Of a stretch of 64,000 nucleotides of DNA, positions 5,269 through 38,427 are shown piece after piece. Origin of the DNA: an uncultured virus (IMG/VR IMGVR_UViG_3300008050_000020) (taxonomy: Duplodnaviria > Heunggongvirae > Uroviricota > Caudoviricetes); IMG/VR virus record IMGVR_UViG_3300008050_000020; one strand, written 5' to 3'. The notes below the pieces were generated by a model. That model was not told the origin of the DNA and did not search any database. It was given only the letters and a program-made list of their open reading frames with translations. The position numbers and the translations under genes are program-made. Position 1 is the stretch's first letter. Each line of letters opens with the position of its first letter.

Positions 5269-5290
5269 TTAACAAACTCTAGGAGAGAGC

Positions 5291-5596: not shown

Positions 5597-5653
5597 TCAG
5601 CGTGCATCTAAGGTTTGCTGTGTAGTAAAATACAGCAGCATGACGAGGTGAAC

Positions 5654-6871: not shown

Positions 6872-6912
6872 ACCCACCTCCTCCTGTTGTAAGATATTTG
6901 AAGAGGTGGCAC

Positions 6913-10788: not shown

Positions 10789-11072
10789 TGTCGGATCTCA
10801 AGGATTATCGGACAGCAGAAGAAATTTCTCGTGAAGATGAGCTCATTGAGATGATAGCTCTCAAATCAGGCATTGACAAGAGCCGACTGGAAGTTGGGCC
10901 GTCATACCTCGATCCCAACGAGTGGCATGTTGATCGTCGCCTAAGGCTTGATAAACGAAAGATCAAAGCTCGCTGGTGGAGGCCAAATTCTCTGACCAAC
11001 GAAGATGCCATTGACGAATTCGTAAAAGATCTCCTTGAAGAGGTTGCTTGGCGTGAAGAATCAGTCTTGTAA
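10788..11072 (+). CDS. Hypothetical protein
   Basis: Translationally coupled ORF. Confidence 0.5.
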   Translation: MSDLKDYRTAEEISREDELIEMIALKSGIDKSRLEVGPSYLDPNEWHVDRRLRLDKRKIKARWWRPNSLTNEDAIDEFVKDLLEEVAWREESVL

Positions 11073-11114
11073 AAGCAGCTCTGTAGGCAGTAGAGTTACG
11101 CCAAAGGAGGCTGA

Positions 11115-12041
11115 ATGAGTAATGATCTTCAGCGAATGTTTGCGGCACAGTCCGACTTCAACAACAATTTTTTCGACAATGCTGAGCTCACCCAAGAAGA
11201 GCGTGAGCGGCTGACGATGGTTTTTGCTGCCTCTCTCCAGAAGGAAGTAGGAAGCTTGCTGGACGGAGTCAACTTCCGACAGCACCGACTTATCGACAAG
11301 AAGCCCGTCCTTAGCACTATTCTGCATGAAGGCGTCGATGCCTGGCGATACGTGCTGGCGATCATGAACTTGTGGGGCATCACACCAGAAGAGTTTGGTG
11401 AAGCTTTCGATGACAGAGATTTGTTTCTTCGAATGCGTCACGAGAAGGAGTCAGTAGCCTGGGACGGCCGACCTGTTTTGATTGTAGATCTGGACGATGT
11501 CGTCACACCTTTTCGACATGACTGCACTGAATGGGTGAAGGCTCATCACGCTGATGCAGTTGACGAAACGTCGACAGCGTACTACAGCATTCCAGCGCAT
11601 CTCTACGATGAGTACATCAAGGATCGCATGCTCAAGGTGCAAGGCGTTATCCCTGAGTACATTAAGGCTGTCAATGAGCTCCGAGAGATGGGCCTCTGGA
11701 TCCACCTCCTGACTGCTCGGCCCAAGGAGAATTTGACTGTCAAGTACGACACCTACGCATGGCTGAAGTCGTCAGGTCTTCAGTTTGATCGTGTGTCGTT
11801 TAGTCCCGAGAAGTACCTCTGGGTCGCTGGAACAGATTACTTCAAGCAGCGAGCCGTTGTTGCAGCTGTTGACGATTCTCCTAAGCATGCGATGGAGTAC
11901 GCGACTCACGGCCTCAAGTGCATCGTCCCAGGCACACCTTACAACGAAGACATCAGCACTCACCGAAACATTCTTCGTTGCGATGATGCAGAAGCTTTCA
12001 AGAGTCGAATTGAAGAACTTCTCGTTCGAGCACAGTTCTAA
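11115..12041 (+). CDS. dUTPase/MazG-like N-domain fused to HAD 5'(3')-nucleotidase-like domain
   Basis: N-terminal KEVGSL..HEGVDAWRY; C-terminal IVDLDDVV, LLTARP, VDDSPKH motifs. Confidence 0.72.
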   Translation: MSNDLQRMFAAQSDFNNNFFDNAELTQEERERLTMVFAASLQKEVGSLLDGVNFRQHRLIDKKPVLSTILHEGVDAWRYVLAIMNLWGITPEEFGEAFDDRDLFLRMRHEKESVAWDGRPVLIVDLDDVVTPFRHDCTEWVKAHHADAVDETSTAYYSIPAHLYDEYIKDRMLKVQGVIPEYIKAVNELREMGLWIHLLTARPKENLTVKYDTYAWLKSSGLQFDRVSFSPEKYLWVAGTDYFKQRAVVAAVDDSPKHAMEYATHGLKCIVPGTPYNEDISTHRNILRCDDAEAFKSRIEELLVRAQF

Positions 12042-12241
12042 TGAAATACGGTGTTTGGGTTGTTGATCTAGAGCCGTACTGGCTTGTCCGAGGAGCTGAG
12101 GGTGTCTCTCTCGTAGAGGCTATCAACTGCTTGAAGAGGCACAAAGAAAAGTGGCCAAATGACGAATGCATTGTCTACAATATTGTCAATGGTAGTTCAA
12201 CAGTTCCGTTAAATTTGAACACCTGCGCTCCTGCGCCTTAG
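12041..12241 (+). CDS. Hypothetical protein
   Basis: TAATG-coupled short ORF. Confidence 0.45.
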   Translation: MKYGVWVVDLEPYWLVRGAEGVSLVEAINCLKRHKEKWPNDECIVYNIVNGSSTVPLNLNTCAPAP

Positions 12242-12262
12242 ATTTCACTGGTAGAGGAATAC

Positions 12263-13252
12263 ATGCCACAGAATAATGACCTGGAACCGGTCACTTTTCC
12301 CATGGAGCTTCGTTTCAACGAGGCGCCAACCACAAGCTTCAAGAATGATCTGGAGGCCATCAACGTTGAGTTGCTAGACTTCCCTGATCCGGAACGAGCT
12401 CGTCGGATGGTTTATCAGTTCATCAACGCTACATGGGAAGATAAGCCAGGGCTTCATGATCCTGACGATGTTCCTGAGTGGAAGTGGTACGAAGCCCTCG
12501 AGCTGGCTCTGAACTTCAAGGCGCTTCCAACAGTCATGGAGACTTTGGACTTCACTTTCCGAATTGAGGGCATCGACCTCCAGGCTGTTACGCACCTGAT
12601 TCGACACCGGACCTTCTCTTTTAGTGCGCAATGCACTGGAGACCGTTGGCAGACGCATTCGAATGCCGTTGTCCCAGGGCCCGTCCAGAACAGCCCTGCG
12701 CTTTACGCGCGGTGGAAGAAGCATGTCGAGGATGCTAAGCAGCTCTACTGCGACATGATCGACACGCGCAAGATTTCCATCATGGATGCTCGGACGATTC
12801 TTCCGCGAGCCATCGAGACTCACTACTACGCTCGATGCAATCTCAAGGACATGCTCAACTTCCTTCGCCAGCGCTTTGACAAGCAGATTCAGCCTACGAC
12901 TGATAACGTCATTGCCTATCAGATGTTCCTAGCAGTTGCACGTCTCTTCCCTGAGATTGTGACTTGTATCAATCCCCATGCAGCATCTCGCCACTATGTT
13001 GCGACTGCACGGACGGGCAAGGCTACAAATCTCTACTGGCCCGATGCTGACAGCGACAAGTTCGAGTGGAACTCGGCGGATTTCATCTATCAGTGTGAGC
13101 GTGATGAGGTCAACGGAACAGATCCCGTCCTCGGTGCCCGAGAGAACTTCAAGTTCACTGAGCTGATGGAGAAGTACGATGCTGAGGTCACCGAAATCCG
13201 AGACAGTTACAACGGGTTCAAGGAGACCTCAGGCTGGACTGAGTCCAGCTGA
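12263..13252 (+). CDS. Divergent ThyX-like flavin-dependent enzyme
   Basis: FTFRIEGI..VTHLIRHRTFSFSAQC and DARTILP motifs; Cys at the position of the RHRx7S serine. Confidence 0.75.
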   Translation: MPQNNDLEPVTFPMELRFNEAPTTSFKNDLEAINVELLDFPDPERARRMVYQFINATWEDKPGLHDPDDVPEWKWYEALELALNFKALPTVMETLDFTFRIEGIDLQAVTHLIRHRTFSFSAQCTGDRWQTHSNAVVPGPVQNSPALYARWKKHVEDAKQLYCDMIDTRKISIMDARTILPRAIETHYYARCNLKDMLNFLRQRFDKQIQPTTDNVIAYQMFLAVARLFPEIVTCINPHAASRHYVATARTGKATNLYWPDADSDKFEWNSADFIYQCERDEVNGTDPVLGARENFKFTELMEKYDAEVTEIRDSYNGFKETSGWTESS

Positions 13253-19373: not shown

Positions 19374-19985
19374 ATGCTTGATCTTGTACGCCAGTTTGTG
19401 CGACGGACGCTTCTAGAGTCGGGTTTGCCGCCCAATACGCCCGTTTTGCTTGGTCGAGACGACCCGCGTCGAGCGCAGCTCCAACAGCATGTCTACGGAA
19501 TGCTCGCACAGACATACGAGCCTATCGGTGGACATTTCAAGGTCTCTTCGGAAGACGACATCCAAAAGTTTGACTTCTGGGTTGTAGAAGACGTTGACAA
19601 TGACGATCAGGCTGATCTTTTCATCACCGGGAATCAAAAGTCCGCTGGTGTCAAGGTGAGTGCATCAGGGACTGATGGAACAGCTGCAGCGAAGAAGCGG
19701 GTCAAGTCTCTAAGTGCAGATCTTCGAAAGGGACAGTCAATCGACGGTGTCGGGAATTGGTACGGCGAAGTCTCAGGAAAGCCCGCATATGCTTTGCTCT
19801 CCCGTGGAGCACCAGCAGTCAACGACGAGTCAAAAGTCCAGAAGATCTTGGGCAAGGAAATCACGTGGCATGGTGAGTATCCTCGTGACCATGCTCCTCC
19901 CATCTTCAAGAACGCGGTAGGTTGGTACAGCCGGGACATCGGCGGGCACACAGCGCTCAAGATTATGATCGGGAATCCGAAGTAG
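19374..19985 (+). CDS. Hypothetical protein with N-terminal LVRQFVRRTLLE tag
   Basis: GGAG RBS; shared tag. Confidence 0.7.
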   Translation: MLDLVRQFVRRTLLESGLPPNTPVLLGRDDPRRAQLQQHVYGMLAQTYEPIGGHFKVSSEDDIQKFDFWVVEDVDNDDQADLFITGNQKSAGVKVSASGTDGTAAAKKRVKSLSADLRKGQSIDGVGNWYGEVSGKPAYALLSRGAPAVNDESKVQKILGKEITWHGEYPRDHAPPIFKNAVGWYSRDIGGHTALKIMIGNPK

Positions 19986-19986
19986 C

Positions 19987-20015
19987 GTGTAAAATCAGCA
20001 CCTTTGTGGTAAGAT
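19987..20015 (+). promoter_or_regulatory. Sigma70-type promoter of dnaE
   Basis: GTGTAA-17 nt-TAAGAT; same pattern at 6866, 11067, 12215, 14057, 38377, 55870, 57838, 61258. Confidence 0.6.
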
Positions 20016-20063
20016 GAGCATCTAAGGCCCAAGCAAGGGCCGAGCTCGCTTACTGAGGTGCAA

Positions 20064-21776
20064 ATGCTCGATATTCGTCCGCCGGAGAGATTCGTTGGTC
20101 TCCATGCCCATACCGGCTTCTCCGTGTTCGATGGAATCGGATATCCTGCTGATCACATTGACTTCGTGCTGGAAAACGGCATGGATGCCTGGACGATCAC
20201 AGATCACGGAAATGCCAATGGGCATGCTCACGCTCGCAAGCACTTCCAAAAGCTTGCGAGGAAAGGTCAGAAGTACCGTCAGTTGTATGGGGTTGAGTTC
20301 TACTTTGTCCCAGACCTTGAAGAGTGGGATTCTGCGAGAGCGGATCACAAGGCGGCAGTAGCTGCCGCGAAGAAGGGTAAGGCTGCCGCCGAAGAAGAGG
20401 ATCAGGGACACGTTGTTGAGAGCGAGGAAGATACACGTACTAACTCGGCTGCCCAGGATCACTGGAAGCGACGCTACCATCTGGTCGTCTTCGCCAAGAA
20501 CCAGACGGGCATGCACAACTTGTACACTCTCGTTAAGAAGTCTTACAAGTACGGATTCTATCGCTTTCCTCGCATTGACTTTAAGTGGCTCAAGGAGCAC
20601 GGTGAAGGACTTGTTGTCTCGACTGCATGCGTCGGCGGATATCCTTCAAGTCTTGTCTTTCGAGAGTTTCCCGACAAGAAGTTTGATGAGCTGACTCCTG
20701 GACTATTGGACGGTCCTGAGTCTGTCCGCATTATGGCCAACCTTGAGAACATGGTTGATCGTTTCGTTGACGCGGTAGGCGAAGAGAACTTCAATCTTGA
20801 GATGCAGTTCAACAAGTTGCCCGCTCAGCATCTCGTCAACAAGGCACTGATCAATCTGTCAAAGGCAACTGGCATTCCGCTCGTCGCCACTGCAGACTCC
20901 CACTACTACAGGCCGGATCTCTGGGAGGCTCGAGAGTTGTACAAGGGTCTCGGCTGGCGAGGCAAGAAGGACGACGGCCTGACCCTTCCTTCGCGTGAAG
21001 ATCTCAAGTGCGAGCTGTACCCAAAGAATGCTGGACAGATGTGGGAGGAGTATCTCCAGCATAAGGACTCGTTCCCGTTCTATGCAGGCACTGAGGAGAT
21101 TGTTCGAGACTCCATTGAGCGAACTCATGACATCGCTTGGCAGCAGTGCGAAGACACCTGGATCGACACATCCGTCAAGCTCCCCAATTTCTCGAAGGAA
21201 GGGAATACTGCATTCAATCAGCTTCTAACGCAAGTCAAGAAGGGAATGATTGACCTCGAGCTTGACAAGAAGCCCGAATACGTCGCGCGTATCAAGGAGG
21301 AGATGGCAGACATCAAGTTCCTTGGCTTCGAGAACTACTTCCTTGTCATGAACGAAGTCTTCCATATCGCCGCAGATGAGACGTTGTTTGGCTGCGGCCG
21401 CGGCTCAGCATCTGGAAGCTTGGTCAACTATGTCCTGGGGATCACGCAAGTTGATCCCATCCAGTACGGTCTACTGTGGGCACGATTCCTGGGTCGACAC
21501 CGGTGCTTGACGGGCGAGACTCTCGTGCAGACGAAGAGTGGTCCCAAGAGATTGGATGAGCTCGAAGTGGGTAACTTGGTCTTTACACACACAGGCGAGC
21601 TCAAGCCTGTCACTGACACTGTCAAGGCTGCTCACGATATTGCCTACAAGATCAAGGTTAATGGTGAGGAGATCGTCTGTGCTCCCAACCACAAGTGGAT
21701 TGTTGTTCGTGACGGGCAGCAAATTGAAGTCATGGCATGTGAACTTCGACAGGGCGACAGCCTAGTTACATGGTGA
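20064..21776 (+). CDS. dnaE: DNA polymerase III alpha, piece 1 (PHP plus start of palm) fused to split intein N-half 1
   Basis: LHAHTGFSVFDG, ITDHGN, ATADSHY, GRGSASGSLV, LLWARFL, then CLTGETLV intein block A. Confidence 0.93.
   Translation: MLDIRPPERFVGLHAHTGFSVFDGIGYPADHIDFVLENGMDAWTITDHGNANGHAHARKHFQKLARKGQKYRQLYGVEFYFVPDLEEWDSARADHKAAVAAAKKGKAAAEEEDQGHVVESEEDTRTNSAAQDHWKRRYHLVVFAKNQTGMHNLYTLVKKSYKYGFYRFPRIDFKWLKEHGEGLVVSTACVGGYPSSLVFREFPDKKFDELTPGLLDGPESVRIMANLENMVDRFVDAVGEENFNLEMQFNKLPAQHLVNKALINLSKATGIPLVATADSHYYRPDLWEARELYKGLGWRGKKDDGLTLPSREDLKCELYPKNAGQMWEEYLQHKDSFPFYAGTEEIVRDSIERTHDIAWQQCEDTWIDTSVKLPNFSKEGNTAFNQLLTQVKKGMIDLELDKKPEYVARIKEEMADIKFLGFENYFLVMNEVFHIAADETLFGCGRGSASGSLVNYVLGITQVDPIQYGLLWARFLGRHRCLTGETLVQTKSGPKRLDELEVGNLVFTHTGELKPVTDTVKAAHDIAYKIKVNGEEIVCAPNHKWIVVRDGQQIEVMACELRQGDSLVTW
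21504..21773 (+). mobile_element. Split intein 1, N-half (90 aa)
   Basis: CLTGETLVQT start, block B VCAPNHKW, ELRQGDSL then stop. Confidence 0.9.
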
Positions 21777-21795
21777 ATCGCCCTGCGAGGATTAA

Positions 21796-22305
21796 ATGAA
21801 AATCACACGAAGAAAACTTCGCCAGCTCATCAATGAAGAATTGAGGTCGTCAGGTTTGCTATCTGAGTCAAGAGAATATGAGAGTACACAGGCCGACGCT
21901 AAAATGGCAGCCTCTCAAAGTCAAAATCTGTTGCTGCATTTTGTCAGCTGGGCATTTCATGAAGGGCTCGATGAGAGCACTGCCTATGAGAGAAACACAA
22001 CGTCAGTCTATGACACTGCCGAAGCTGACATTCGTGACTTCGTAGAGTCATGGGGTGCTGAGGTAGGATATACAGTTCAACAGGTTAGAGACTGGCTTTT
22101 GCAGACTCATTTTGGTGACGATGGGCGTGATTGGTTTCCAGACGACGGAACAGAGTGGAATTTAGGCCCAGCTCATTTGTCCTCGGATAAGTCTCGGAAG
22201 ATTCGTCTTCCATCTAAGCCTGGTGATGTTAAGTCAATTCGCTATGCTGAGTTCTTCGGGATTCCTTCGACACTTCTTGACGAGCCAAGCGAAGCATCTG
22301 CTTAG
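21796..22305 (+). CDS. Hypothetical protein with MKITRRKLRQLINEE tag, lying between the halves of split intein 1
   Basis: GAGG RBS; shared tag; CCTAGTTA upstream. Confidence 0.7.
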   Translation: MKITRRKLRQLINEELRSSGLLSESREYESTQADAKMAASQSQNLLLHFVSWAFHEGLDESTAYERNTTSVYDTAEADIRDFVESWGAEVGYTVQQVRDWLLQTHFGDDGRDWFPDDGTEWNLGPAHLSSDKSRKIRLPSKPGDVKSIRYAEFFGIPSTLLDEPSEASA

Positions 22306-22381
22306 TCGTGATAGTGACGGCGAGGAGATGATCACTAAAGCGATTTGATATGTATTCCCGTAAAACAAAGCGGAGAATACG

Positions 22382-23275
22382 ATGCCAGTCAAAACAAAGA
22401 AGTGTAAGAACTGTCGAAAGTTGATTCGGATCGAGTACGACGGAAGCCAATCAGCTAACGCAGCTTGCAATCGGAAGTACTGCTGCACTGAGTGTGGTAG
22501 AGCGTATCGGAAGAAGCATCGAACGAGTCGCTCTGTTGAGTTGACGTGCATCCACTGTGCTACGATGTACCACAAGCCAAAATCGCAATCGAAGAACTCG
22601 AAGTTTTGCTCTCGCAAGTGCCAGAATACGAGCTATGCACAAGCTTCTTCGTTGAAAGAAGATCGACAGTGTAATCAGTGCGGAAAGACGTATAGAATTG
22701 CCTCTACTTCTCGACGAAAGTACTGCTCACAACAATGTTCAGCAAAAGGCAGACGAAAGAATCGTCCTAAACTTTGCTGTGTTGTGTGCAAAAAGACGAT
22801 CAAAGGCGAGGGCAAGAAGTTCTGCTCTCGAAGCTGTCAATACGAAGGGCAGTCTTTGGGAATCGTCAAGAGTCATAGCAGCGGGCGATCAGGCTATCGA
22901 CGAGACCTCCCAAAGGTGAGATTTCGGAGCTCTCTAGAGGCCGATTATATGCGGTATTGCCAGCATACCGGAATCAGAGTGGAATATGCACCCAGAGCAT
23001 TCACGATTGAAGTCGACGGAAGGACACGCAAATACACGCCAGACTTCTACTTGCCTGACGAAGATCGATATGTTGAAGTCAAGGCTCTCAGAAAAGATGG
23101 GTTGTACAATAGCAATCTAATTTGCGTGAAAAAGCTGGATGAGTTGGGGTACAATATAACTCTGGTGCCCATGCGTGAATTCTATCAGATGCTGCGTGAT
23201 CAAGGGCTTTACAAAACGATTCCCAATCTCGAAAATCGAGACTACAGAGGTACACTTGAGCTCATCTACAGTTGA
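22382..23275 (+). CDS. Free-standing homing endonuclease: CxxC..(Y/F)CSxxC zinc-finger repeats plus PD-(D/E)XK (TnsA-like) domain
   Basis: Four Cys-rich repeats; FRSSLEA, YTPDFYL, YVEVK. Confidence 0.82.
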   Translation: MPVKTKKCKNCRKLIRIEYDGSQSANAACNRKYCCTECGRAYRKKHRTSRSVELTCIHCATMYHKPKSQSKNSKFCSRKCQNTSYAQASSLKEDRQCNQCGKTYRIASTSRRKYCSQQCSAKGRRKNRPKLCCVVCKKTIKGEGKKFCSRSCQYEGQSLGIVKSHSSGRSGYRRDLPKVRFRSSLEADYMRYCQHTGIRVEYAPRAFTIEVDGRTRKYTPDFYLPDEDRYVEVKALRKDGLYNSNLICVKKLDELGYNITLVPMREFYQMLRDQGLYKTIPNLENRDYRGTLELIYS

Positions 23276-23390
23276 GATTGAAAGCATCGAGATCATCACA
23301 GCTCCCGACAATATGGTGGACATCACTGTTGAAGATGACCACACTTACTGGTGTTCTCCAACAGGTGAGAACTGGTACCTGACACACAAC
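23256..23390 (+). mobile_element. Split intein 1, C-half (45 aa)
   Basis: VEIESIE..MVDITVEDDHTY..LTHN followed by Thr. Confidence 0.88.
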
Positions 23391-24884
23391 ACGTCCTGGC
23401 CGGATATCGACTCTGATGCAGGCGATCGTGATGCGCTGATCAACGCAGCCCGGAAGCTTTACGGCGAGGACGCGGTCATTCCCGTGTCTAACTTCAACAC
23501 CCTGAAGCTGCTGTCTCTGGTCAAGGACATCTCAAAGTTCTATGGCATCAACTTCCAGGAAGTCAACAAGATGACCAGCGGCCTCCAGCGTGAGGTCGAG
23601 CCGATGGATCGTGATCCCAACGAGGAGAAGTCGGTCTACGTCCTTACTCACGAAGCCTGTATGGAGCACTCGTCGAAGTACTTGGCTTTCATGTCGAAGT
23701 ATCCTGAGGTCAAGGATCACATCGAAACGCTGTTTATGCAGAATCGCTCGATGGGTCGGCACGCTGGTGGCGTCATCATTGCTCCCCCTGAGGAGCTTGA
23801 AAAGACGATGCCGATCGTCAAGGTTCGAGGAGATTTGCAGACTCCTTGGACGGAGGGAATGAACTTCCGTAACCTTGAAGACAACGGATTCATCAAGTTC
23901 GACTTCCTTGGCTTGACACTGATGAAGGATGTCGAGAATTGTATTCGTCGAATCCTCCAGAAGAAGGGGAAGAAGAACCCGTCATTCGCGGATGTCCGGA
24001 ACTACTTCGACCGTCATCTCAACTGTCGTTACGTCTCGCCTGACGATCCCAAGGTCTTTGAGACCGCATTCCATCAGGGTCACTTTGCACCCGGAATCTT
24101 CCAATTCACACAGAAGGGTGCTCGTCAGTTCTGTAACGCTGCCAAGCCATACGACATCCCCGAGCTTGGTGCAATTACTGCTATCTACCGACCAGGACCG
24201 CTCAAGGCTGACGTGCACAAGAAGTACGTTGCCACTAAGAAGAAGGTCCTCGACGGTGACAAGATTCGCTATCCTCACCCGCTAGTTGAGGAGGTCCTTT
24301 CTGAGACTCTCGGATTCCAGGTCTTTCAGGAGCACTGGATGATTCTCGCTCAGAAGCTTTCGGGCTTCACTCCGGGCGAATCGGATAAGCTTCGCAAGAC
24401 GCTGGTCAAGAAGTCCTTGGACACTCTTGACAAGAAGGCGGATGAACGGGCAGCTGCAAAGAAGAAGTTCATTGAGGGCGGCGTCGAGCTTCATGACATC
24501 AACCGCGCCGACATGGAAGAGCTCTGGGAACAGATGCGCTTCTTCTCACTCTATGGGTTCAACAAAAGTTTACACTTTGACTCGACGATTGATACCTACA
24601 CTGGAGAGGGACAATTTGTTGAACAGAGGAAGATCCAAGACTTCAAGGGTGGCGAAATCGTCCGGTCCCGTGATGAGTCAACTGGTGAAGACATCTTTGT
24701 TGAAGTCAAGGCAAACCATCCGCATGGCAAGCTGCCTCTCGTCAAGATCACGCTAGATGATGGAAACACGATCCGCTGCACGATGGACCACAAATTCCGG
24801 ACGACAGACGGCCGGATGCTTCCGCTTCACCAGATCTTGCGGGATGAGTTGGAGATTGTGACATGCGATGCGAAAAGTGTGTAG
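23256..24884 (+). CDS. dnaE: DNA polymerase III alpha, piece 2 (IntC1 - catalytic palm/thumb/fingers - IntN2); probable TTG start
   Basis: GAGG then TTG at 23256; WYLTHN|TSWPDIDSD, GRHAGGVII, IKFDFLGL, GIFQF, IYRPGP, YGFNK|SLHFDS. Confidence 0.92.
   Translation: MSSSTVEIESIEIITAPDNMVDITVEDDHTYWCSPTGENWYLTHNTSWPDIDSDAGDRDALINAARKLYGEDAVIPVSNFNTLKLLSLVKDISKFYGINFQEVNKMTSGLQREVEPMDRDPNEEKSVYVLTHEACMEHSSKYLAFMSKYPEVKDHIETLFMQNRSMGRHAGGVIIAPPEELEKTMPIVKVRGDLQTPWTEGMNFRNLEDNGFIKFDFLGLTLMKDVENCIRRILQKKGKKNPSFADVRNYFDRHLNCRYVSPDDPKVFETAFHQGHFAPGIFQFTQKGARQFCNAAKPYDIPELGAITAIYRPGPLKADVHKKYVATKKKVLDGDKIRYPHPLVEEVLSETLGFQVFQEHWMILAQKLSGFTPGESDKLRKTLVKKSLDTLDKKADERAAAKKKFIEGGVELHDINRADMEELWEQMRFFSLYGFNKSLHFDSTIDTYTGEGQFVEQRKIQDFKGGEIVRSRDESTGEDIFVEVKANHPHGKLPLVKITLDDGNTIRCTMDHKFRTTDGRMLPLHQILRDELEIVTCDAKSV
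24567..24881 (+). mobile_element. Split intein 2, N-half (105 aa)
   Basis: SLHFDSTI start after GFNK; block B IRCTMDHKF; stop after CDAKSV. Confidence 0.88.
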
Positions 24885-25831
24885 CTGAGGAGGCTGCCAA
24901 GAAGACAACCTGGCGGCACCGACTCAAGTGTGAGAAGTGGTTCGAGACATCGATTCTCGGTGAGGACTATGTTAAGTGTGCTCTCTGCGAGTTTCGAGCA
25001 AGACAACTGACACAGCACACCAAACGTGAGCATGGGTTCACCAAGAAAGAGTACATTGAGAAGTTCGGTCCGATTTCCTGCTCTGCTGCTAGCAAGGTTC
25101 GTTCACAAACGAACAAGGTGAATGGGAACTGGTTCGGTCGAGCATCTGACGAGAGGCGTGAAGAGTGGCGACAAGGGCTGGGAGAGAAGATCTCTGCCGG
25201 GATTATGTCATCACCTTCTGCTCGCGAAGCACGACGTCAAAATATGACAAAGCGGAATCAATCAGAAGAGGGTCGAAAGCTTTCGTCAGAGACTGCAATT
25301 AGAACATCTGCACGACCTGATATTCAAAAGAAGCGCGCAGCAGCACTCCAGAAGTGGCGCGATGAGAATCGAGAGGAATTTTACGAGAAGTGTACGAGAG
25401 CGATGCATCGGACATGGCAATCTGTTCCTGAATGTCGCCTCTTTGAGCTTCTTATTGATCGATTTCCTGAGCACGGATTTAAACAGAATCAACAGATTCG
25501 TAGGACGGGGAAGTTTAGAACTGTCAAGTCTGGAACAAGGCAAATTGACATCTACTCACGAGATCACAAGGTTGTTGTTGAGTTCGATGGGATCTATCAT
25601 TTTGAACCTGTTCGAGGTGCTGATCATCTTTCGCATATCCAAGCAAAAGATCAAGAGCTTGGAGAGGTGCTCTCAGCAGAGGGCTTCCTCGTAATCCGTG
25701 TCTCTTATGACCAGTTCGACTACAAACAGGGTGGATACTTTCATGCAAATTGCGTCCAGCACATGGTAAAATTGGTGAGTAAAGGTGAGCCAGGACTTCA
25801 CCTGATCGGCGAGTCGTATGAAAATAGTTGA
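24863..25831 (+). CDS. Free-standing Vsr/DUF559-like endonuclease with C2H2-like zinc finger
   Basis: CALC..HTKREH; QIDIY..VVEFDGIYHF; KDQEL..GFLVIRV. Confidence 0.8.
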   Translation: MRCEKCVAEEAAKKTTWRHRLKCEKWFETSILGEDYVKCALCEFRARQLTQHTKREHGFTKKEYIEKFGPISCSAASKVRSQTNKVNGNWFGRASDERREEWRQGLGEKISAGIMSSPSAREARRQNMTKRNQSEEGRKLSSETAIRTSARPDIQKKRAAALQKWRDENREEFYEKCTRAMHRTWQSVPECRLFELLIDRFPEHGFKQNQQIRRTGKFRTVKSGTRQIDIYSRDHKVVVEFDGIYHFEPVRGADHLSHIQAKDQELGEVLSAEGFLVIRVSYDQFDYKQGGYFHANCVQHMVKLVSKGEPGLHLIGESYENS

Positions 25832-26015
25832 CAACAACGTTGTGATTTCGCCGAAGTCGCAACTGTTCAAGATTCTTAAGGCAATGGCCGAGGATGAGTA
25901 CTCTGAGCCTCTTATCGAGAGAACGTCAAAAGGCGAGATTGTTGTCTACACTGGTCTCGTGAAAAATGGTCACGCATATCAACCAGGCAAACCAGAGAAT
26001 CTAAAAGGGAAGTAA
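25818..26015 (+). CDS. Small hypothetical protein between the halves of split intein 2
   Basis: Overlaps the endonuclease end; TAATG-coupled to dnaE piece 3. Confidence 0.55.
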   Translation: MKIVDNNVVISPKSQLFKILKAMAEDEYSEPLIERTSKGEIVVYTGLVKNGHAYQPGKPENLKGK

Positions 26016-26125
26016 TGGCCAAGATCACATCAGTAAAGTTCATCGGTGAGCATGAGACGTTCGATCTCGAGATCGATCATCCTGATCACCAGTACTACAC
26101 GTCAGATGGCATCCTGACGTCAAAC
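26015..26125 (+). mobile_element. Split intein 2, C-half (37 aa)
   Basis: MAKITSVKFIGEHETFDLEIDHPDHQYYTSDGILTSN followed by Ser. Confidence 0.9.
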
Positions 26126-27085
26126 TCTCACGCCGTCGCATACGCTATCGACAGCTACTACGCGGCCTGGCTGTACACTTACTACCCTCACGAGTGGCTG
26201 GCTACGGTTCTGCAGTCTAAGACAGCAGATGCCGATAAGCTGACCAAGGCGATCTCTGAGATCAAGATGCTGGGCTACACCTTCATTCAGCCTGACGTCG
26301 ACTTCGCGGGTCTGGAATGGGTCTTCTCAGAAGAAGCTGATGGTTTCGTTCCGCCTCTTGCTGCCATCAAGGGCGTAGGCAAGACTGCTGCGAGAGAGAT
26401 CATCGCTCATCGCCCATACCAGACTCTGGATGATCTCTTCTACGACGAAGACGGCGAGTGGTATCACTCCAAGATGAACAAGACGTGCTTCGCCAACCTC
26501 TGTAAGATCGAGGCATTCAACTCGATTAAGGAAGTCTCAAACGGCACCATTGAGCATCATCGCCAGCTCCATGAGATCATCGTAGGAGGTTATGATCGGC
26601 TCCGCAAGGGACGAAAGGGTCTCAGTCGGACGCAGGTTAAGCGTCGTGAGAAGAAGGGCGAGCTCGTCCCGGACGTCCTTGACGTCTTGATCGAGGAGAA
26701 CCAGTACACTGAAGACTGGACTCGAATCGAGAAGATCCAGATGAGCTACGATCTCACCAAGACCGCGAGGCTGGAACTCATCTTCCCGGAGGGAATCCTC
26801 GAGAAGCTTGAAAAGAAGAACATCCCACCAGTGACAGAGATCGGTGCCAAGAAGAAGGCCATTTGTTGGTTCTTCATCGTCGACTGTCAGGTCAAGAAGA
26901 CCAAGAAGGGAAATTCTTTTGTTCGACTCAAGGTCTCGGACCACAACAACGAGACTTGCTGGCTCCGCATCTGGGGCCTTGGTAAGCCTCTCGAGCTCTA
27001 CACGCTCTGGATGTGCCAGGCTAAGGGTGATCTCGACTGGGGTCCTTCCACTTCTGTCCGGGACATTCGTCCCATCGAGCTTTGA
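26015..27085 (+). CDS. dnaE: DNA polymerase III alpha, piece 3 (IntC2 - HhH/OB C-terminal part)
   Basis: ILTSN|SHAVAYA..AWL..YYP; IKGVG HhH; OB-like KKTKKGNSF. Confidence 0.92.
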   Translation: MAKITSVKFIGEHETFDLEIDHPDHQYYTSDGILTSNSHAVAYAIDSYYAAWLYTYYPHEWLATVLQSKTADADKLTKAISEIKMLGYTFIQPDVDFAGLEWVFSEEADGFVPPLAAIKGVGKTAAREIIAHRPYQTLDDLFYDEDGEWYHSKMNKTCFANLCKIEAFNSIKEVSNGTIEHHRQLHEIIVGGYDRLRKGRKGLSRTQVKRREKKGELVPDVLDVLIEENQYTEDWTRIEKIQMSYDLTKTARLELIFPEGILEKLEKKNIPPVTEIGAKKKAICWFFIVDCQVKKTKKGNSFVRLKVSDHNNETCWLRIWGLGKPLELYTLWMCQAKGDLDWGPSTSVRDIRPIEL

Positions 27086-27086
27086 G

Positions 27087-27869
27087 ATGACTGTAAAATA
27101 CACAGGTAGCAAGAAGTGGCTGACGAAGGTCTTGCGTCCCATTGACGAAGTCTACGAGCCTTTCTGCGGATCGGGAGTAGTCTCTTTCGAGAAGAGCAAG
27201 GTTTGTCACTTGAATGACCAGCTCGAGCCTCTCATTGCGGTTTACAAGCGTCTGCAGATTGACAAGGAGAGCTTCATCAAGGAGCTTCTCGCAGAGGTTG
27301 AGGGAATCAAGTCAGCCTCGAATTCGTCAGCTGCGTATTACGACGCACGTGCCAGATACAATGCTGGCGGGATGTCAGATCCCGTTCTCTTCTGCGTCAT
27401 CATCTACTTGGGATTCAATGGACTCTATCGAGTCGGTCCCAACGGGTGCAACGTTCCTTACGGTGGAGACTCTCGACGATTCAATCCTAAGGGCTTGATG
27501 GAGATTCCCGTCGAGAAGATTGCAACGCTGACTTGCGGATCTTGGGATGCCACAGCAGTCCCAAATGAAGACTGCACCATCTACGTTGATCCGCCCTACG
27601 CAACGACCTTCACGGGGTACACGAGAAAGGGGTGGGCGCATGCAGACAACGTGCAGCTCTTTGGTTGGCTAGCTGAGCAGCCCAATCCCGTTTTGATCTC
27701 ATGTCTAAGAACTGAAGACAACGAGCAGCTGCTGACCGACTTGAACTTCGACTTCGTCTCGATGGACAAGGTCTTCAGCAATGGTGCGAAGTCTGTCAAG
27801 AAGGGCGAGATTCTGGCATTCAACGACCGAGCTGTTCCTCATATTCTCTTTCGTCAGGTTCGACGATGA
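27087..27869 (+). CDS. dam: DNA adenine methyltransferase (Dam/D12 class)
   Basis: KYTGSK, YEPFCGSG, LND, GFNGLYR, YVDPPY. Confidence 0.88.
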   Translation: MTVKYTGSKKWLTKVLRPIDEVYEPFCGSGVVSFEKSKVCHLNDQLEPLIAVYKRLQIDKESFIKELLAEVEGIKSASNSSAAYYDARARYNAGGMSDPVLFCVIIYLGFNGLYRVGPNGCNVPYGGDSRRFNPKGLMEIPVEKIATLTCGSWDATAVPNEDCTIYVDPPYATTFTGYTRKGWAHADNVQLFGWLAEQPNPVLISCLRTEDNEQLLTDLNFDFVSMDKVFSNGAKSVKKGEILAFNDRAVPHILFRQVRR

Positions 27870-30242: not shown

Positions 30243-31091
30243 ATGTTCTACCGAGAGTACGTGTGTGAGCACTGCGGAAAAGCGGGCAAGAAATCGGTAA
30301 GACATCGGTACCAGACAAAGCGAACTCAGAGATTTTGTGACCGTGCTTGCAGTAACAAGTGGATGCATAAGAATGGAGTCCTCAAGTCTGCGGGCAGAGA
30401 CAATCCGATGTATGGAAAATCAGTCAAAGAGCACTGGATAGAGAGGCACGGTAAAGAAAAAGCTCAAAAGCTTATCGCTCAACGTCGTGCTAGACAAGAG
30501 GCAGGAAGCGCTGGCGCAAACAACGGAATGTATGGTAAGGAGCATAGCGAGAAATCCAAACGTGCAATCTCTGAGTTTCGTGCAGGAAAAACGCTTGAAG
30601 AGCTCTGGGGCGAGGAGAGAGCAAAAGAATACAAATCTGAGTTGTCTGTTCGAATGTCTGGTTCTGGTAATCATATGTTTGGTAAAACTTCGACGGGCGG
30701 TCGCTCGATCAAAGGCACATACAAAGGCTTCTTTTTTAGAAGCCTTCTCGAGTATTCTTTCATGCGGCATCTCGAAGAGCAAGGTCATCCGCTAGACACT
30801 GTCGATTACGAGACAGTTCGCATTCGTGTCAGCGACAACATGACATACAAGCCCGACTTCTTCGTTCCTGCGACGCAGATTCTTTATGAGGTCAAGCCCG
30901 CGTACGCCGTCGCCCGAGAGGAGAATGTGATCAAGTTCACAGCAGCGAAGCATTATTGCAAAGAGCAAGGATGGACGTTCAAGGTGGTAACCGAGAATGA
31001 TTTCCGGAAGATTTCGTTTGCTGAAGCTGAGGAAGACGACGGCGTCGTCTTCGATGAACGAACGCTAAGCTATTTTAAGAGGACATCATGA
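30243..31091 (+). CDS. Free-standing homing endonuclease: Zn finger, NUMOD3-like repeats, TnsA-like PD-(D/E)XK domain
   Basis: CEHC..FCDRAC; NPMYGK/NGMYGK/NHMFGK; FRSLLE, YKPDF, LYEVK. Confidence 0.85.
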   Translation: MFYREYVCEHCGKAGKKSVRHRYQTKRTQRFCDRACSNKWMHKNGVLKSAGRDNPMYGKSVKEHWIERHGKEKAQKLIAQRRARQEAGSAGANNGMYGKEHSEKSKRAISEFRAGKTLEELWGEERAKEYKSELSVRMSGSGNHMFGKTSTGGRSIKGTYKGFFFRSLLEYSFMRHLEEQGHPLDTVDYETVRIRVSDNMTYKPDFFVPATQILYEVKPAYAVAREENVIKFTAAKHYCKEQGWTFKVVTENDFRKISFAEAEEDDGVVFDERTLSYFKRTS

Positions 31092-32038
31092 TTACGTTTC
31101 CGACAAACCATCTTGTCATTGAAGGGCCAGATTGTGCGGGGAAGACTACGCTCTACAGAGGCCTTCATAAGGCATCAGGATTCAGGTGGAACATCCTGGA
31201 CAGATCATTTCTGTCCATGCTTGTCTACGCCAAGATGTACAGTCGCGACACTGGCCTCCACGCCCAGGGTCTCTGGTCCGAGCTAACCAACATGAACAAC
31301 CGATTCGTGCTAATGCTCCCGAGCTATGCAGCAGTTGTTGAGCGATACAAGGTTCGAGGCGACGACATTCAGAACGAGCATACCCTCGAGAAGGTTGTAG
31401 ACCTCTTCGGCGACCACGACTGGCTTAGCTCGTTTCCCAACGTTACGCTGCTGGACAATTCTGATGTGGGACTCTCTGCGCTTGAAGACGATGTTGACCA
31501 GATTGTAGGCTGGCTTAAGACAAAGGAAGAGTACTCCATCGACGACATCGCAAGTGAGGTCGCTCGTTTCGTCTCTGTCATGCCCAACGGTTCAGTGGAC
31601 GACATGCGCGGGTACGAGACACCCATCAGCCTCACCTTCTACGACGACGGCGCCTTCGATGAAGGGCAAGACGCTTCCGAGATTTTTGCAGACGAAGAAG
31701 AGGGTGCTTACTATCAAGGCATCTACAACAGACTCATTGACAAGATTGGTGCTGAGCTGGAGGGAGACAATCCTTACAACGAAAAGCAGACTGTGAAGTC
31801 TCGACGCTTCGTTTATACAGACGACTCTTGCATCTCGTTCATCCAGATTCTCAATCGTGATGGCATCATGGACTTTCACGCAGTCCTCAGATCAACGAAC
31901 GTGGCCAAGACTTTCCGCAAGGACCTCAACTTTCTCTACTGGCTCGCTGAGTCTGTCCAGAAGAAGTTTCCCGAGCTTTCGTCTGTTAGGTCCACGCGAT
32001 TTCGGGTGCAAATGAACTCTGCTCACCTGGTGCGGTAG
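31088..32038 (+). CDS. dNMP (thymidylate-like) kinase fused to a thymidylate-synthase-like domain
   Basis: EGPDCAGKTT P-loop, LDR..S..VY; C-terminal SRR..SCISFIQ..HAVLRSTN..NSAH resembles a ThyA-fold core. Confidence 0.72.
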   Translation: MITFPTNHLVIEGPDCAGKTTLYRGLHKASGFRWNILDRSFLSMLVYAKMYSRDTGLHAQGLWSELTNMNNRFVLMLPSYAAVVERYKVRGDDIQNEHTLEKVVDLFGDHDWLSSFPNVTLLDNSDVGLSALEDDVDQIVGWLKTKEEYSIDDIASEVARFVSVMPNGSVDDMRGYETPISLTFYDDGAFDEGQDASEIFADEEEGAYYQGIYNRLIDKIGAELEGDNPYNEKQTVKSRRFVYTDDSCISFIQILNRDGIMDFHAVLRSTNVAKTFRKDLNFLYWLAESVQKKFPELSSVRSTRFRVQMNSAHLVR

Positions 32039-34881: not shown

Positions 34882-35075
34882 TGAAGAAAGTTACTGTCAC
34901 GCTGCAGATCAAAGCCACAATGTGGGCTGCTGATTGGAACCCACAAGAGATGATTCAGTACTTGAAGGCATACCACGACGGCCAACATCCTGCTGGCTGG
35001 GTTCGTGATGGAATTGCTGATCAGGGATCTGATATCACTGTAACAGATACAAAAATCGAGGAAGTCGAACAATGA
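34881..35075 (+). CDS. Hypothetical protein
   Basis: TAATG-coupled ORF. Confidence 0.55.
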   Translation: MKKVTVTLQIKATMWAADWNPQEMIQYLKAYHDGQHPAGWVRDGIADQGSDITVTDTKIEEVEQ

Positions 35076-35845
35076 GTTACGAAAAGCATATTGAGCTATA
35101 CGGCGACGGCATCGGCAAGGTCGAGTACGTCGAACACATGGGCTCAGACCTCACAATCGTGAACAGTGCTCGGGTGTCGTTTGGAAGTCACAAAGACGTC
35201 CTCGACGAAAAGGACGCAAAGCTCATCAACTACCTCGTGAATCCACCTGACGGAAAGATGCATACCTCAGTCTTCGAGCACTGTGCCGTTACCTTCCGTT
35301 TCAAGGTTCCGCTCTTCATCCGTTCTCAGCATCACCGTCATCGGACCTGGTCATACAACGAGATCAGCAGGCGCTACACAGCATCAGACATTGAGTTCTA
35401 TGAGCCCGAGACTTTCCGGACGCAAGCCAAGCGCAACCGACAGGCGAGCAATGCTGAGGATCTGATTGACCCGATGATCAATGTCGAGGACGCTGATCAT
35501 CCCAAGTTTGGCGAGTGGATCCATCCGCATCCTGCTTCTCAAGCTGTTCGAGAGCATCACCAAGCTTCTCTAGATCTGTATCATCGTCTCATGGAAGTTG
35601 GTGTTTGTCGAGAGCAGGCACGAGGTGTTCTTCCGCAAAACATGTACACGACGTACTACGGCACAGTGTCGCTACTGAATGCATTGAAGTTCTGCTCTTT
35701 GCGTTTGCCCAAGGGAGCCCAGTGGGAAATTCGTCGAGTTGCTGAAGCAATGGTGACGATTCTCAAGGATCTCTATCCGATTGCTGTCGAAGCATGGATT
35801 AGCAATCTTGATGACGACGTGAAAGAACTCTTTACCGACACTTGA
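35072..35845 (+). CDS. thyX: Flavin-dependent thymidylate synthase
   Basis: ARVS, HTSVFEH, RHRTWSYNEISRRY (RHRx7S), EQARGVLP, AQWEIR. Confidence 0.95.
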   Translation: MSYEKHIELYGDGIGKVEYVEHMGSDLTIVNSARVSFGSHKDVLDEKDAKLINYLVNPPDGKMHTSVFEHCAVTFRFKVPLFIRSQHHRHRTWSYNEISRRYTASDIEFYEPETFRTQAKRNRQASNAEDLIDPMINVEDADHPKFGEWIHPHPASQAVREHHQASLDLYHRLMEVGVCREQARGVLPQNMYTTYYGTVSLLNALKFCSLRLPKGAQWEIRRVAEAMVTILKDLYPIAVEAWISNLDDDVKELFTDT

Positions 35846-35879
35846 CAGTGACATAGTTATATGTGTACACGAGGTGCAC

Positions 35880-38367: not shown

Positions 38368-38427
38368 TTCAAGTGCGTGTAAATTCGCATGCGCTTGATG
38401 TACAATTGGTTTTTGGAGAGGAGCTAA

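Follow-up and report, generated by a model that had tools for sequence, protein, structure and literature searches.

Results

A DnaE polymerase encoded in three pieces

An uncultured marine phage encodes a DnaE-type DNA polymerase in three collinear plus-strand open reading frames (ORFs; 20064-21776, ~23256-24884, and 26015-27085), which jointly make up one complete DnaE. Positions refer to the whole 64,000-nucleotide (nt) stretch of DNA that was analyzed, here called the window. The ORF ends at both dnaE breaks are halves of two unrelated split inteins; therefore, the DnaE is most likely joined posttranslationally from three proteins. The three-gene phage dnaE is real and is a doubled form of the fractured-gene layout known since 2009. 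We consider a doubly fractured dnaE, whose three polypeptides would be joined by two split inteins, to be the best explanation of the locus and a probable one. Direct observations are its anatomy and exact boundaries (Table 1), the conserved layout and catalytic residues, the HINT fold predicted for a contiguous relative, and the contiguity of the assembly. The junctions and the stops at 21776 and 24884 quoted in a preliminary description of this DNA were all located in the sequence where it had placed them.

Table 1. Coordinates of the dnaE pieces, intein halves, and intervening genes in the window
Feature	Position	Strand	Size	Remarks
N-extein of DnaE	20064..21503	+	480 aa	PHP domain and first part of palm
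IntN1	21504..21776	+	90 aa	Starts CLTGET; block B CAPNH; then TGA stop
orf169	21796..22305	+		ORF in gap 1 without family
endo1 5' leader	22306..22381	+		Two predicted hairpins; the second covers GGAG ahead of ATG
endo1	22382..23275	+	297 aa	Free-standing nuclease gene; gap 1
IntC1	23256..23390	+	45 aa	From TTG 23256; ends ..WYLTHN; overlaps endo1 3' end by 20 nt
Middle extein	23391..24566	+	392 aa	Catalytic PDIDSD palm and fingers
IntN2	24567..24884	+	105 aa	Starts SLHFDS; block B TMDH; then TAG stop
endo2	24863..25831	+	322 aa	Free-standing Vsr-like nuclease gene; overlaps IntN2 3' end by 22 nt
orf65	25818..26015	+		Small ORF in gap 2; stop overlaps piece 3 ATG
IntC2	26015..26125	+	37 aa	Ends ..GILTSN
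C-extein	26126..27085	+	319 aa plus stop	SHAVAYA..; HhH and C-terminal domain

The boundaries between exteins and inteins were set by comparison with uninterrupted relatives rather than by visual inspection. Among 21 IMG/VR relatives, 14 have both sites empty, and their three extein parts follow one another directly in a single frame. One of these uninterrupted relatives, L001, reads ..RFLGRHRTSWPDIDSD.. over break 1 and ..YGFNKSHAVAYA.. over break 2. The predicted spliced products, RFLGRHR-TSWPDIDSD and YGFNK-SHAVAYA, are identical, letter for letter, to uninterrupted alleles of related phage contigs.

Piece 1 starts with ATG 20064, as described earlier, and is preceded by a Shine-Dalgarno sequence (GAGG at 20055-20058). 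It ends with ..LLWARFLGRHR/CLTGET.. (the slash marks the extein/intein boundary) and a stop at 21776. The N-extein can be aligned end to end with uninterrupted relatives and matches Pfam PHP (1.4e-27). Piece 2 contains ..WYLTHN/TSWPDIDSD.. and ..LYGFNK/SLHFDS.., followed by the stop at 24884. Its start is most likely TTG 23256, located behind AGAGG (5 nt upstream), and IntC1 therefore has 45 residues; the collection's own record of the piece 2 protein (P0001) has the same 542 residues that this start predicts. The middle extein aligns end to end with residues 460-815 of Taq Pol III alpha and 398-758 of E. coli alpha, and matches Pfam DNA_pol3_finger (3.5e-32). The start of piece 3 at 26015 reads MAKITS..ILTSN/SHAVAYA, and its stop is at 27085. 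Residues 1-319 of the C-extein all align with relatives, and Pfam HHH_6 was detected (1.8e-7).

A check against DnaE families showed that profile coordinates run continuously across both breaks: positions 42-439, 441-794, and 793-1034 of phrog_405 (1190 positions) are found in pieces 1, 2, and 3, and positions 16-98 and 99-260 of Pfam DNA_pol3_alpha in pieces 1 and 2. All three exteins are full length, without frameshift or stop, and are 53-68% identical to uninterrupted relatives.

A gp41-1-like split intein at break 1

The intein at break 1 is a gp41-1-like split intein with Cys1, His-Asn, and Thr+1. Thr+1, like Ser1 and Ser+1 (see below), is an accepted intein nucleophile. The nearest solved relative of IntN1 is the gp41-1 intein 6riz (phmmer, E 2.9e-6), and block F of IntC1 resembles that of the Mja KlbA intein 2jmz (E 1.5e-3). 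Among Pfam profiles, Intein_splicing (26.4 bits) and Hint_2 (25.8 bits) matched IntN1 below threshold, and no Hint/intein profile exceeded its curated cut-off on any of the halves or on the contiguous intein of the relative L022.

The first Cys and the block B His are kept in the IntN1 homologues of 14/14 IMG/VR loci, and the block B His is present in 19/19 N-pieces of the site-1 family. All 14 IMG/VR site-1 loci also keep D..DH in block F and THN/T; the ending THN/TSWPDID of the IntC1 homologues (14/14) is a feature that the search pattern itself selected. Block B of IntN1 reads C-A-P-N-H in the window and C-S-P-N-H in 14/14 IMG/VR relatives. The six nearest clusters (P0123-P0128) have the Ala too, indicating that it is a clade trait; it could slow the first splicing step.

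For the predicted IntN1 + IntC1 complex, an ipSAE of 0.68 was obtained (median of three runs), vs 0.00 for the best of three controls. The partner pLDDT is at least 75, and the runs share at least 97% of contacts. This ipSAE mark was attained by most solved complexes (51 of 78) and by few mismatched pairs (2 of 108); since split-intein complexes have already been solved, the pass of this model may reflect likeness to them. The contiguous site-1 intein of L022 was modeled with a pLDDT of 91.2 and a pTM of 0.86. In Foldseek, this model matched inteins, including gp41-1 6riz (TM 0.90, rmsd 1.7 Å, 25% identity), which was rank two and the top hit by target-normalized TM-score.

A cyanobacterial-DnaE-like split intein at break 2

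The intein at break 2 (Ser1, Ser-Asn, Ser+1) groups with the cyanobacterial DnaE split inteins. IntN2 matched 7qil (1e-12) and Npu 4lx3 (5.1e-10) in phmmer, and 25 phage site-2 IntN and 13 cyanobacterial IntN sequences form one clade (support 98/99). IntC2 gave a full-length alignment with the Npu DnaE IntC 4lx3_B (E 0.082), which includes the ..SN end, and was also aligned with 7qil. The T-x-x-H motif and SN/S are kept in 6/6 site-2 loci. The preliminary description had placed break 2 four residues from the cyanobacterial site. On the N side, where 77 of 78 parsed cyanobacterial loci read ..FAEY/C, this distance was confirmed; the relationship goes beyond mere nearness, the intein being of the same clade.

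Comparison of the two intein pairs

The best BLASTP E value between IntN1 and IntN2 was 0.09, and the sequence comparison of IntC1 with IntC2 gave no match. The nearest relatives also differ, gp41-1 for IntN1 (E 2.9e-6) and cyanobacterial DnaE inteins for IntN2 (E 1e-12). From this dissimilarity and the distinct relatives we infer, in agreement with the preliminary description, that the two pairs would be orthogonal. IntC1 should not react with IntN2, because the inteins are from different lineages (gp41-1-like and cyanobacterial-DnaE-like). The net charge of all halves is negative (IntN1 -3, IntC1 -9, IntN2 -5, IntC2 -5), and for them a simple opposite-charge capture as in the cyanobacterial pairs is not obvious.

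Genes in the gaps and spread of the layout

As noted earlier, whole genes lie between each pair of halves; there are two ORFs per gap, orf169 and endo1 in gap 1, and endo2 and orf65 in gap 2. For orf169, we found no Pfam or PHROG family, no tblastn match in 35 IMG/VR loci, and no Atlas match of at least 0.9. The predicted fold of positions 22296-22400, around the endo1 leader, has a free energy of -27.1 kcal/mol (z -2.95), and 0 of 200 shuffles were equally stable. In the endo1 product, four zinc-ribbon repeats (CxxC..(F/Y)CSxxC) accompany a PD-(D/E)xK domain like that of T7 endonuclease I (..YTPDF..VEVKA..); the product gave a subthreshold match to Pfam Phage_endo_I (6.2e-5) and a match to PDB 1m0d (E 0.0048). 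Its homologues were found in the site-1 gap of 7/14 loci, and all 7 aligned sequences retain the cysteines and the PDF..E.K motif unchanged. The endo2 product matches Pfam DUF559 (25.0 bits; cut-off 20.6) and has an N-terminal Ros/MucR-like zinc finger (ROS_MUCR, 2.3e-4). Homologues are present in 8/8 split site-2 gaps, and the motif QID..E.DG..HF..D..IRV is invariant in six of six sequences. No Pfam or PHROG family was found for orf65, which has a homologue (53% identical) in the site-1 gap of L023.

The identical layout was detected in 3 of 35 IMG/VR relatives (L026, L031, and L033), at 42-66% amino-acid identity. Both nucleases are present in L031 and L033, and in L026 as far as its contig end. 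Among the best 120 protein clusters, 25 are IntC-extein-IntN middle pieces according to a strict rule, and 15, the window's own included, are site-1-to-site-2 middle pieces. Our literature search found no natural three-piece case described. The layout is not singular, given the three relatives and the many metagenomic middle pieces.

Alternative explanations

The window is metagenomic, and its layout could be an artefact: the assembly might be chimeric, or the intervening sequences might be cut out of the RNA or the DNA before translation takes place. We regard this as extremely improbable. Contigs from runs X1 and X2, which represent different samples and years and either of which may be the source sample, each cover positions 19500-27600 unbroken, with one base difference. 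Contigs of a third run bridge the stop codons at 21776 and 24884, and no joints or indels are listed for the contigs of four runs. Misassembly and RNA splicing had been named as risks; the locus proved contiguous, and the Rfam search gave no match to a group I/II intron or any other family at E up to 1. Moreover, the insert edges match intein blocks and not intron features, and independent IMG/VR contigs have the same layout. It is also very unlikely that dnaE is an unused gene under destruction by selfish nucleases, with replication performed by another polymerase. The window has many mobile nuclease genes and an RNR gene with an in-frame TAG, and two of four related records show a weak family A polymerase-like match; all of this would fit such decay. 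However, the three exteins are intact, and the layout persists in diverged contigs and many clusters. A search of the four related records revealed no family B polymerase, and no other polymerase family turned up among the Pfam-scanned window ORFs, which are a part of the total.

Somewhat less remote, though still unlikely, is that one or both intein pairs are splicing-dead and that the halves only dock the pieces, resulting in a non-covalent two- or three-chain polymerase, a mode of assembly that has been suggested for split genes with no intein or a dead one. The Ala in place of the usual Ser/Thr in IntN1 block B and the Pfam intein models under their cut-offs would agree with docking, as would a split RNR that assembled without splicing, as far as it is described in the part of Crona et al. 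2011 (PMC3045599) used here. Dead relics, however, are expected to lose splicing residues, whereas both pairs have every residue that class 1 splicing requires: the nucleophiles Cys1 or Ser1 and Thr+1 or Ser+1, His in block B, Asp in block F, and a terminal Asn. These residues are conserved although the intein identity of relatives is only 36-57%, and full-size halves (90+45 and 105+37 aa) are kept. Complementary halves with all nucleophiles and the terminal Asn, at sites that are both empty in relatives, support the proposal of three polypeptides with two split inteins at the level of sequence, comparison, and modeling.

Discussion

Proposed assembly of the polymerase

According to the trans-splicing model, the seven ORFs on one strand, probably in one transcript, would yield three polymerase precursors: N (480-aa extein and IntN1), M (IntC1, 392-aa extein, and IntN2), and C (IntC2 and 319-aa extein). 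We infer the splicing steps from what is established for the chemistry of class 1 inteins. IntN1 and IntC1 would form one HINT domain, in which a thioester at Cys1 would be attacked by Thr+1 and the terminal Asn would cyclize, joining ..RFLGRHR to TSWPDIDSD.. just ahead of the catalytic aspartates. Independently, IntN2 and IntC2 would use Ser1, Ser+1, and Ser-Asn to join ..YGFNK to SHAVAYA... The end product would be one DnaE chain of ~1,191 residues. A reaction of IntC1 with IntN2 would circularize the middle piece and is not expected. The products of endo1 (site 1) and endo2 (site 2) are site-associated and most likely homing endonucleases. They would have broken mini-inteins that were once contiguous, and would today carry each cassette into alleles with an empty site.

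Comparison with known systems

The cyanobacterial split DnaE inteins (Npu, Ssp; 4lx3, 4kl5, 1zd7, 7qil) share with break 2 the host protein and a homologous intein. Break 2 follows ..YGFNK, four residues downstream of the cyanobacterial ..FAEY/C, and uses Ser1 and Ser+1, whereas Cys1 is observed in the cyanobacterial inteins, which have Cys+1. IntN2 and IntC2 are linked and lie on either side of a nuclease gene, whereas the cyanobacterial halves are encoded in distant loci. The gp41-1 intein (6riz, 6qaz), the nearest solved relative of intein 1, also comes from a phage-type fractured gene. However, its host is the gp41 helicase and not the DnaE palm, identity is only ~25-30%, and intein 1 differs in its block B Ala and in its +1 residue, Thr.

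The fractured genes presented in the part of Dassa et al. 2009 (PMC2677866) considered here are of the same kind as the window locus: a host gene of DNA metabolism is divided among neighboring collinear ORFs, with split-intein halves at the break and a free-standing endonuclease gene between them. They likewise feature a Vsr-like nuclease (in the window, at site 2) and a nuclease 3' end that overlaps the IntC ORF (in the window, at site 1). Three DnaE loci are described there, in short reads; each has one split intein, and the sites differ. These are single fractured loci, one of which has part of a second intein. The DnaE-3 IntC in the supplement is of the same type as IntC2 of the window, L031, and L033. 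In comparison with the loci in this part of the paper, the window has two breaks in one gene, giving the IntC-extein-IntN middle piece, a site-1 nuclease that is T7 endonuclease I-like PD-(D/E)xK with four zinc ribbons, and two additional ORFs in the gaps (orf169 and orf65). In the same source, the cyanobacterial C-half is positive, whereas IntC2 is acidic.

The logic of the window resembles engineered tandem trans-splicing, as outlined in the parts of Pinto et al. 2020 (PMC7090010) and Angew Chem 2025 (PMC12707363) cited here: three segments are used, the middle one has an IntC on one side and an IntN from a different pair on the other, and two pairs that do not cross-react are needed. Those systems are laboratory-built, whereas the window carries a natural arrangement that is kept in many phage contigs and in which two intein pairs have co-existed within one protein.

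Three collinear dnaE pieces

The region comprises seven + strand ORFs, and DnaE domains were found on three of them (see the table). Their order, PHP, palm with the catalytic aspartates, fingers and HhH, is that of the C-family (Pol III alpha), and the PDIDSD of the window aligns with the PDID of Taq alpha. Pieces 1, 2 and 3 cover positions 42-439, 441-794 and 793-1034 of the 1190 positions of phrog_405. Profile coordinates thus run on across the breaks, indicating that one polymerase is encoded here in three successive parts. Over its whole length, the middle extein (the polymerase part of piece 2) aligned with Taq alpha 460-815 and E. coli alpha 398-758. By this alignment, break 1 immediately precedes the catalytic aspartates (PDxD), and break 2 immediately follows FNK of the fingers. 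The start of piece 1 is ATG 20064, preceded by GAGG. The start of piece 2 is most likely TTG 23256, with AGAGG upstream; the collection's record of this piece (protein cluster P0001) is identical over 542 residues.

Features of the dnaE region and of other genes in the window
Feature	Position	Strand	Content
Piece 1	20064-21776	+	Pfam PHP; DNA_pol3_alpha profile positions 16-98
endo1	22382-23275		Nuclease gene, break 1
Piece 2	to 24884	+	Pfam DNA_pol3_alpha profile positions 99-260; finger domain (DNA_pol3_finger)
endo2	24863-25831		Nuclease gene, break 2
orf65	25818-26015		Small ORF, break 2
Piece 3	26015-27085	+	Pfam HHH_6
RNR large-subunit gene	1831-5268		Contiguous intein with HNH domain (Pfam Intein_splicing 302-587, HNH_3 423-463)
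Homing-endonuclease-like genes	8667-9290, 30243-31091, 35874-36647		Free-standing
Nucleotide-pool genes	10426-13252, 31088-32038, 35072-35845, 37795-39728		Around dnaE

An IMG/VR scan with piece 2 as the query gave 21 loci. In 14 of these, all three extein parts abut in frame without inserts; five show break 2 alone, and two have an insert at a third site. One relative, L001, reads ..RFLGRHRTSWPDIDSD.. and ..YGFNKSHAVAYA.. across the break points, exactly the products predicted for inserts leaving as inteins. The preliminary description had proposed a DnaE encoded in three genes with two breaks. Collinear ORFs, continuous profiles and end-to-end alignment to uninterrupted relatives bear this out, and the product spliced in silico is identical to L001 at both junctions. 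Among cultured phages, all 1,380 INPHARED matches were <60% identical (best, 30.8%). The doubly fractured dnaE is real and conserved and, judging from sequence and modeling, would most likely need two independent trans-splicing reactions.

Misassembly or RNA splicing could also make a gene appear in pieces. In each of two sequencing runs (X1 and X2, either of which may represent the source sample), contigs extend across 19500-27600 and differ from the window at a single base, G to A at 26300. Contigs from run X3 bridge both stop codons. The assembly is contiguous here. No joints or indels at the locus were listed for the runs compared. A permissive Rfam search for introns in 19500-27600 gave 0 matches. 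Promoter and terminator scans were at chance (5 promoter-like sites vs. 4.8 expected; 8 terminator-like sites vs. 6.1 expected, none of them on the + strand). Position 26300 is G in the window and A in contigs of all four runs compared. With A, the C-extein has Asn for Asp within ..IQPDVDFAG.., and Asn is also present in cluster P0002, which is 87% identical.

Intein halves at both breaks

At both breaks, an IntN is located at the C-end of the upstream ORF and an IntC at the N-end of the downstream ORF. The class 1 nucleophile, the terminal Asn and the following Cys/Ser/Thr are present in both inteins (Cys1 and ..HN before T; Ser1 and ..SN before S) and conserved in relatives. The halves were expected to match Hint HMMs. 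Such matches were found, with E-values of 1e-5 to 1e-3, but all of them lie under the curated Pfam cut-offs: IntN1 scored 25.8 bits vs. 28.4 (Hint_2) and 26.4 vs. 35.8 (Intein_splicing), IntN2 19.9 bits vs. 35.8, and the contiguous intein of locus L022 24.3 bits vs. 28.4; halves and mini-inteins are short for such models. IntN1 and IntN2 showed no detectable similarity to each other (best E, 0.09), and a comparison of IntC1 with IntC2 gave no match.

Intein 1

IntN1 (90 aa, Cys1) has the gp41-1 intein as its nearest solved relative (E, 2.9e-6). IntC1 (45 aa) ends in ..THN followed by Thr, and its block F matches the Mja KlbA intein (E, 1.5e-3). The pattern HN followed by TSWPDID retrieved 14 further IMG/VR loci; Cys1, the His of block B, block F and THN before Thr are conserved in every one. 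Block B of class 1 inteins has the form T-x-x-H. That of IntN1 reads A-P-N-H vs. Ser in place of Ala in 14 of 14 IMG/VR relatives, with His present; this Ala is common to the six nearest of 19 N-piece clusters, and the His to all 19.

The contiguous intein of L022 was modeled with the halves used as alignment (pLDDT, 91.2; pTM, 0.86) and resembled the solved gp41-1 intein 6riz (TM, 0.90; rmsd, 1.7 A). For the window, the predicted IntN1-IntC1 complex scored 0.68 (median of three runs; best of three controls, 0.00), with partner pLDDT of at least 75 and contact agreement between runs of at least 97%. Of 78 solved complexes, 51 reached the mark used for such scores, as did 2 of 108 mismatched pairs; the pass of IntN1-IntC1 may reflect likeness, because split inteins are already solved.

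Site 1 exists in several states. Among the 14 pattern-found loci, the intein is contiguous in L022, split and nearly gapless in L028, L030 and L034, and split with an endo1 homologue in the gap in seven; three have other inserts. In L022 (6584-7006) it is a contiguous mini-intein, and in L028 and L030 (about 6572-7006) a stop and ~50 nt separate the halves, without a nuclease gene. These are candidates for the states before invasion and after nuclease loss, respectively. A low-depth contig of run X3 matches window 23397-23437 and has ..ERFLGRHR directly before TS. It represents an allele of a related phage from that sample in which site 1 has no intein.

Intein 2 and cyanobacterial DnaE inteins

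IntN2 has 105 aa, Ser1 and T-M-D-H in block B; its matches to DnaE inteins of cyanobacteria have E-values of 1e-12 to 5e-10. The whole of IntC2 (37 aa, ending in ..SN before Ser) aligns with Npu IntC. The HINT fold of intein 2 is assigned by sequence homology to the solved Npu and Ssp DnaE inteins.

Scanning GTDB genomes by motif yielded at least 120 stretches. Of 80 records listed, 79 have the name of a cyanobacterium in the title; the title of the remaining one is "uncultured bacterium." Among the matches listed, the N-extein ends in ..FAEY before Cys1 in 77 of 78 parsed loci. The Tyr of ..FAEY lies four residues upstream of site 2, as the preliminary description had stated. Both halves of the cyanobacterial inteins are akin to those of intein 2. 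In cyanobacteria, however, the intein follows ..FAEY, begins with Cys1 and has its halves at unlinked loci, whereas intein 2 follows ..YGFNK, begins with Ser1 and has its halves 1.1 kb apart.

In an IntN tree (49 rows, 104 columns) rooted on site-1 inteins, a distant outgroup, 25 phage site-2 rows and 13 cyanobacterial rows, motif-picked and thinned to under 80% identity, form one clade with support of 98/99. The cyanobacterial rows are a single group within it (100/100) on a long branch, and at 104 columns this group and the phage rows meet in a three-way fork.

A second, shorter IntN lineage (87-91 aa) was also observed. It follows ..SVY in clusters P0079 and P0084, which is the cyanobacterial position by the motif given in the preliminary description, and ..FN(K/A), i.e., site 2, in four related clusters (P0022, P0042, P0070 and P0074). 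Thus, one intein lineage occupies two sites four residues apart.

Nucleases and other ORFs in the gaps

At both breaks, a predicted free-standing endonuclease gene lies between the intein halves, with a putative homing role. Endo1 combines four CxxC..(F/Y)CSxxC repeats with a T7 endonuclease I-like domain (PDB 1m0d; E, 0.0048), and all seven sequences aligned share the motif YTPDF..E.K without variation. Endo2 matches DUF559 (Vsr-like) at 25.0 bits vs. a cut-off of 20.6 and carries a finger resembling that of Ros/MucR; its motif E.DG..HF..D does not vary among the six sequences aligned. A search of PDB sequences with endo2 gave no nuclease match, I-Bth0305I included. Endo2 has in common with the Vsr-like/EDxHD homing endonucleases (Dassa et al. 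2009; Taylor et al. 2011, PMC3239194) the type of nuclease domain and conserved acidic/His residues. Endo2 homologues occupy all eight split site-2 gaps, and endo1 homologues 7 of the 14 site-1 gaps.

The 3' end of endo1 overlaps the IntC1 ORF by 20 nt. The endo1 leader gave a more stable fold than any of 200 shuffles (z, -2.95), and its second hairpin covers GGAG. The sequence before endo2 showed no gain in folding stability over shuffles (z, +1.77), and orf65 stands between endo2 and IntC2. Orf169, in the site-1 gap, gave no Pfam or PHROG family, no tblastn match in the 35 IMG/VR loci and no Atlas match of at least 0.9. A homologue of orf65 (53% identical) was observed in L023 at 4182-4355, within a 3.4-kb insert of the site-1 gap, showing that this type of small ORF recurs in intein gaps.

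Distribution among relatives

The preliminary description named no natural three-piece case. The case is real, but it is not a single occurrence: all three pieces, the two intein pairs and the two nucleases recur in loci L031 and L033 (42-66% identity), L026 has the same layout up to the limit of its contig, and many clusters share it. We classed the best 120 clusters of a protein search with piece 2 by rule. The strict rule called for an N overhang of 25-90 aa ending in Asn before Cys/Ser/Thr and a C overhang of 70-145 aa starting with Cys/Ser/Thr/Ala. Middle pieces of the form IntC-extein-IntN made up 25 of these best 120 clusters by the strict rule and 34 by a looser one. Fifteen of the 25, that of the window included, run from site 1 to site 2; the rest combine other sites. 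Insertion sites in this family number about ten.

The closest relative found (clusters P0123 and P0020, 90-95% identical, on a 288-kb contig listed at 288,212 bp) has site 1 split as in the window plus a different second split. Its middle piece ends in another IntN, which follows ..FQFTQ; the window is unbroken at this site. A third fracture site with its own split intein was observed ~32 residues upstream of site 1, at ..GRG before S.., in L014 and L015 (about 4366-5656) and L034 (5138-6478). In L014, this site also has a 331-aa ORF with a YYPDF..VEVKG motif.

Other genes of the window

The RNR large-subunit gene has a contiguous intein. Its ORF stops at an in-frame TAG (3880-3882), and read-through would join ORF 3967-5268, the rest of the barrel, in the same frame. 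We rejected the TAG recoding that this suggested: TAG ends 14 of 69 ORFs, and read-through of the other 13 would add 0-45 aa. Two of the three further free-standing homing-endonuclease-like genes are GIY-YIG; one is TnsA/endonuclease I-like with NUMOD3, the same nuclease type as endo1. The nucleotide-pool genes include a dUTPase-like, two ThyX-like (one partial) and a weak thymidylate-kinase-like ORF, a thymidine kinase and a dCMP deaminase. Family B polymerase gave no match in four related records. A weak family A-like polymerase match in two of these four led us to drop the argument that DnaE is the only polymerase.

Comparison with known systems

Tandem trans-splicing with two orthogonal split inteins has been built by hand by protein engineers; in many related phages, it appears to serve naturally in the making of an essential enzyme. 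Such phages may hold ready-made intein pairs that selection has adapted to function together without cross-reacting; one of these pairs is predicted to use Ser/Thr chemistry only. Stepwise gene fracturing is visible in one family, from an empty site through a contiguous mini-intein (L022) and a split with nuclease to a split without nuclease (L028, L030). The kinship of the site-2 intein with cyanobacterial DnaE inteins is a concrete lead on the origin of the textbook split intein.

A bolder joint reading is that, in this uncultured phage group, DnaE is a natural system of trans-splicing at multiple sites, with about ten intein sites in varying combinations and at least three polypeptides joined by mutually orthogonal split inteins; that the site-2 intein is a phage-borne branch of the cyanobacterial DnaE split-intein family; and that the cyanobacterial split dnaE and the phage fractured gene are of one origin, the intein having moved four residues along the gene. 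Split inteins that co-exist in one protein would then have to be mutually orthogonal. We regard this reading as a whole as tentative and rather improbable.

In the literature searched (open-access papers and bioRxiv), we found no natural gene in which two split inteins occur or three pieces are joined by trans-splicing. Phage PolB genes with a pair of inteins are hinted at by the names "PolB1" and "PolB2" in PMC12707363. The paper of Dassa et al. 2009 (PMC2677866) defines fractured genes and reports, from short reads, three loci of DnaE, each with one split intein and each at a different site. It notes part of a second intein for DnaE-1 and describes its own inteins as not close kin of known ones; the IntC of its DnaE-3 is of the IntC2 type. 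As portrayed there, a fractured gene has collinear adjacent ORFs, terminal intein halves and a free-standing endonuclease gene, and all of these are present in the window. Two further traits in that paper are an endonuclease 3' end lying over the IntC ORF and a leader hairpin hiding the ribosome-binding site; site 1 of the window shows the overlap and the fold, whereas site 2 shows neither. The doubly fractured dnaE extends this known kind of gene and is not a separate kind.
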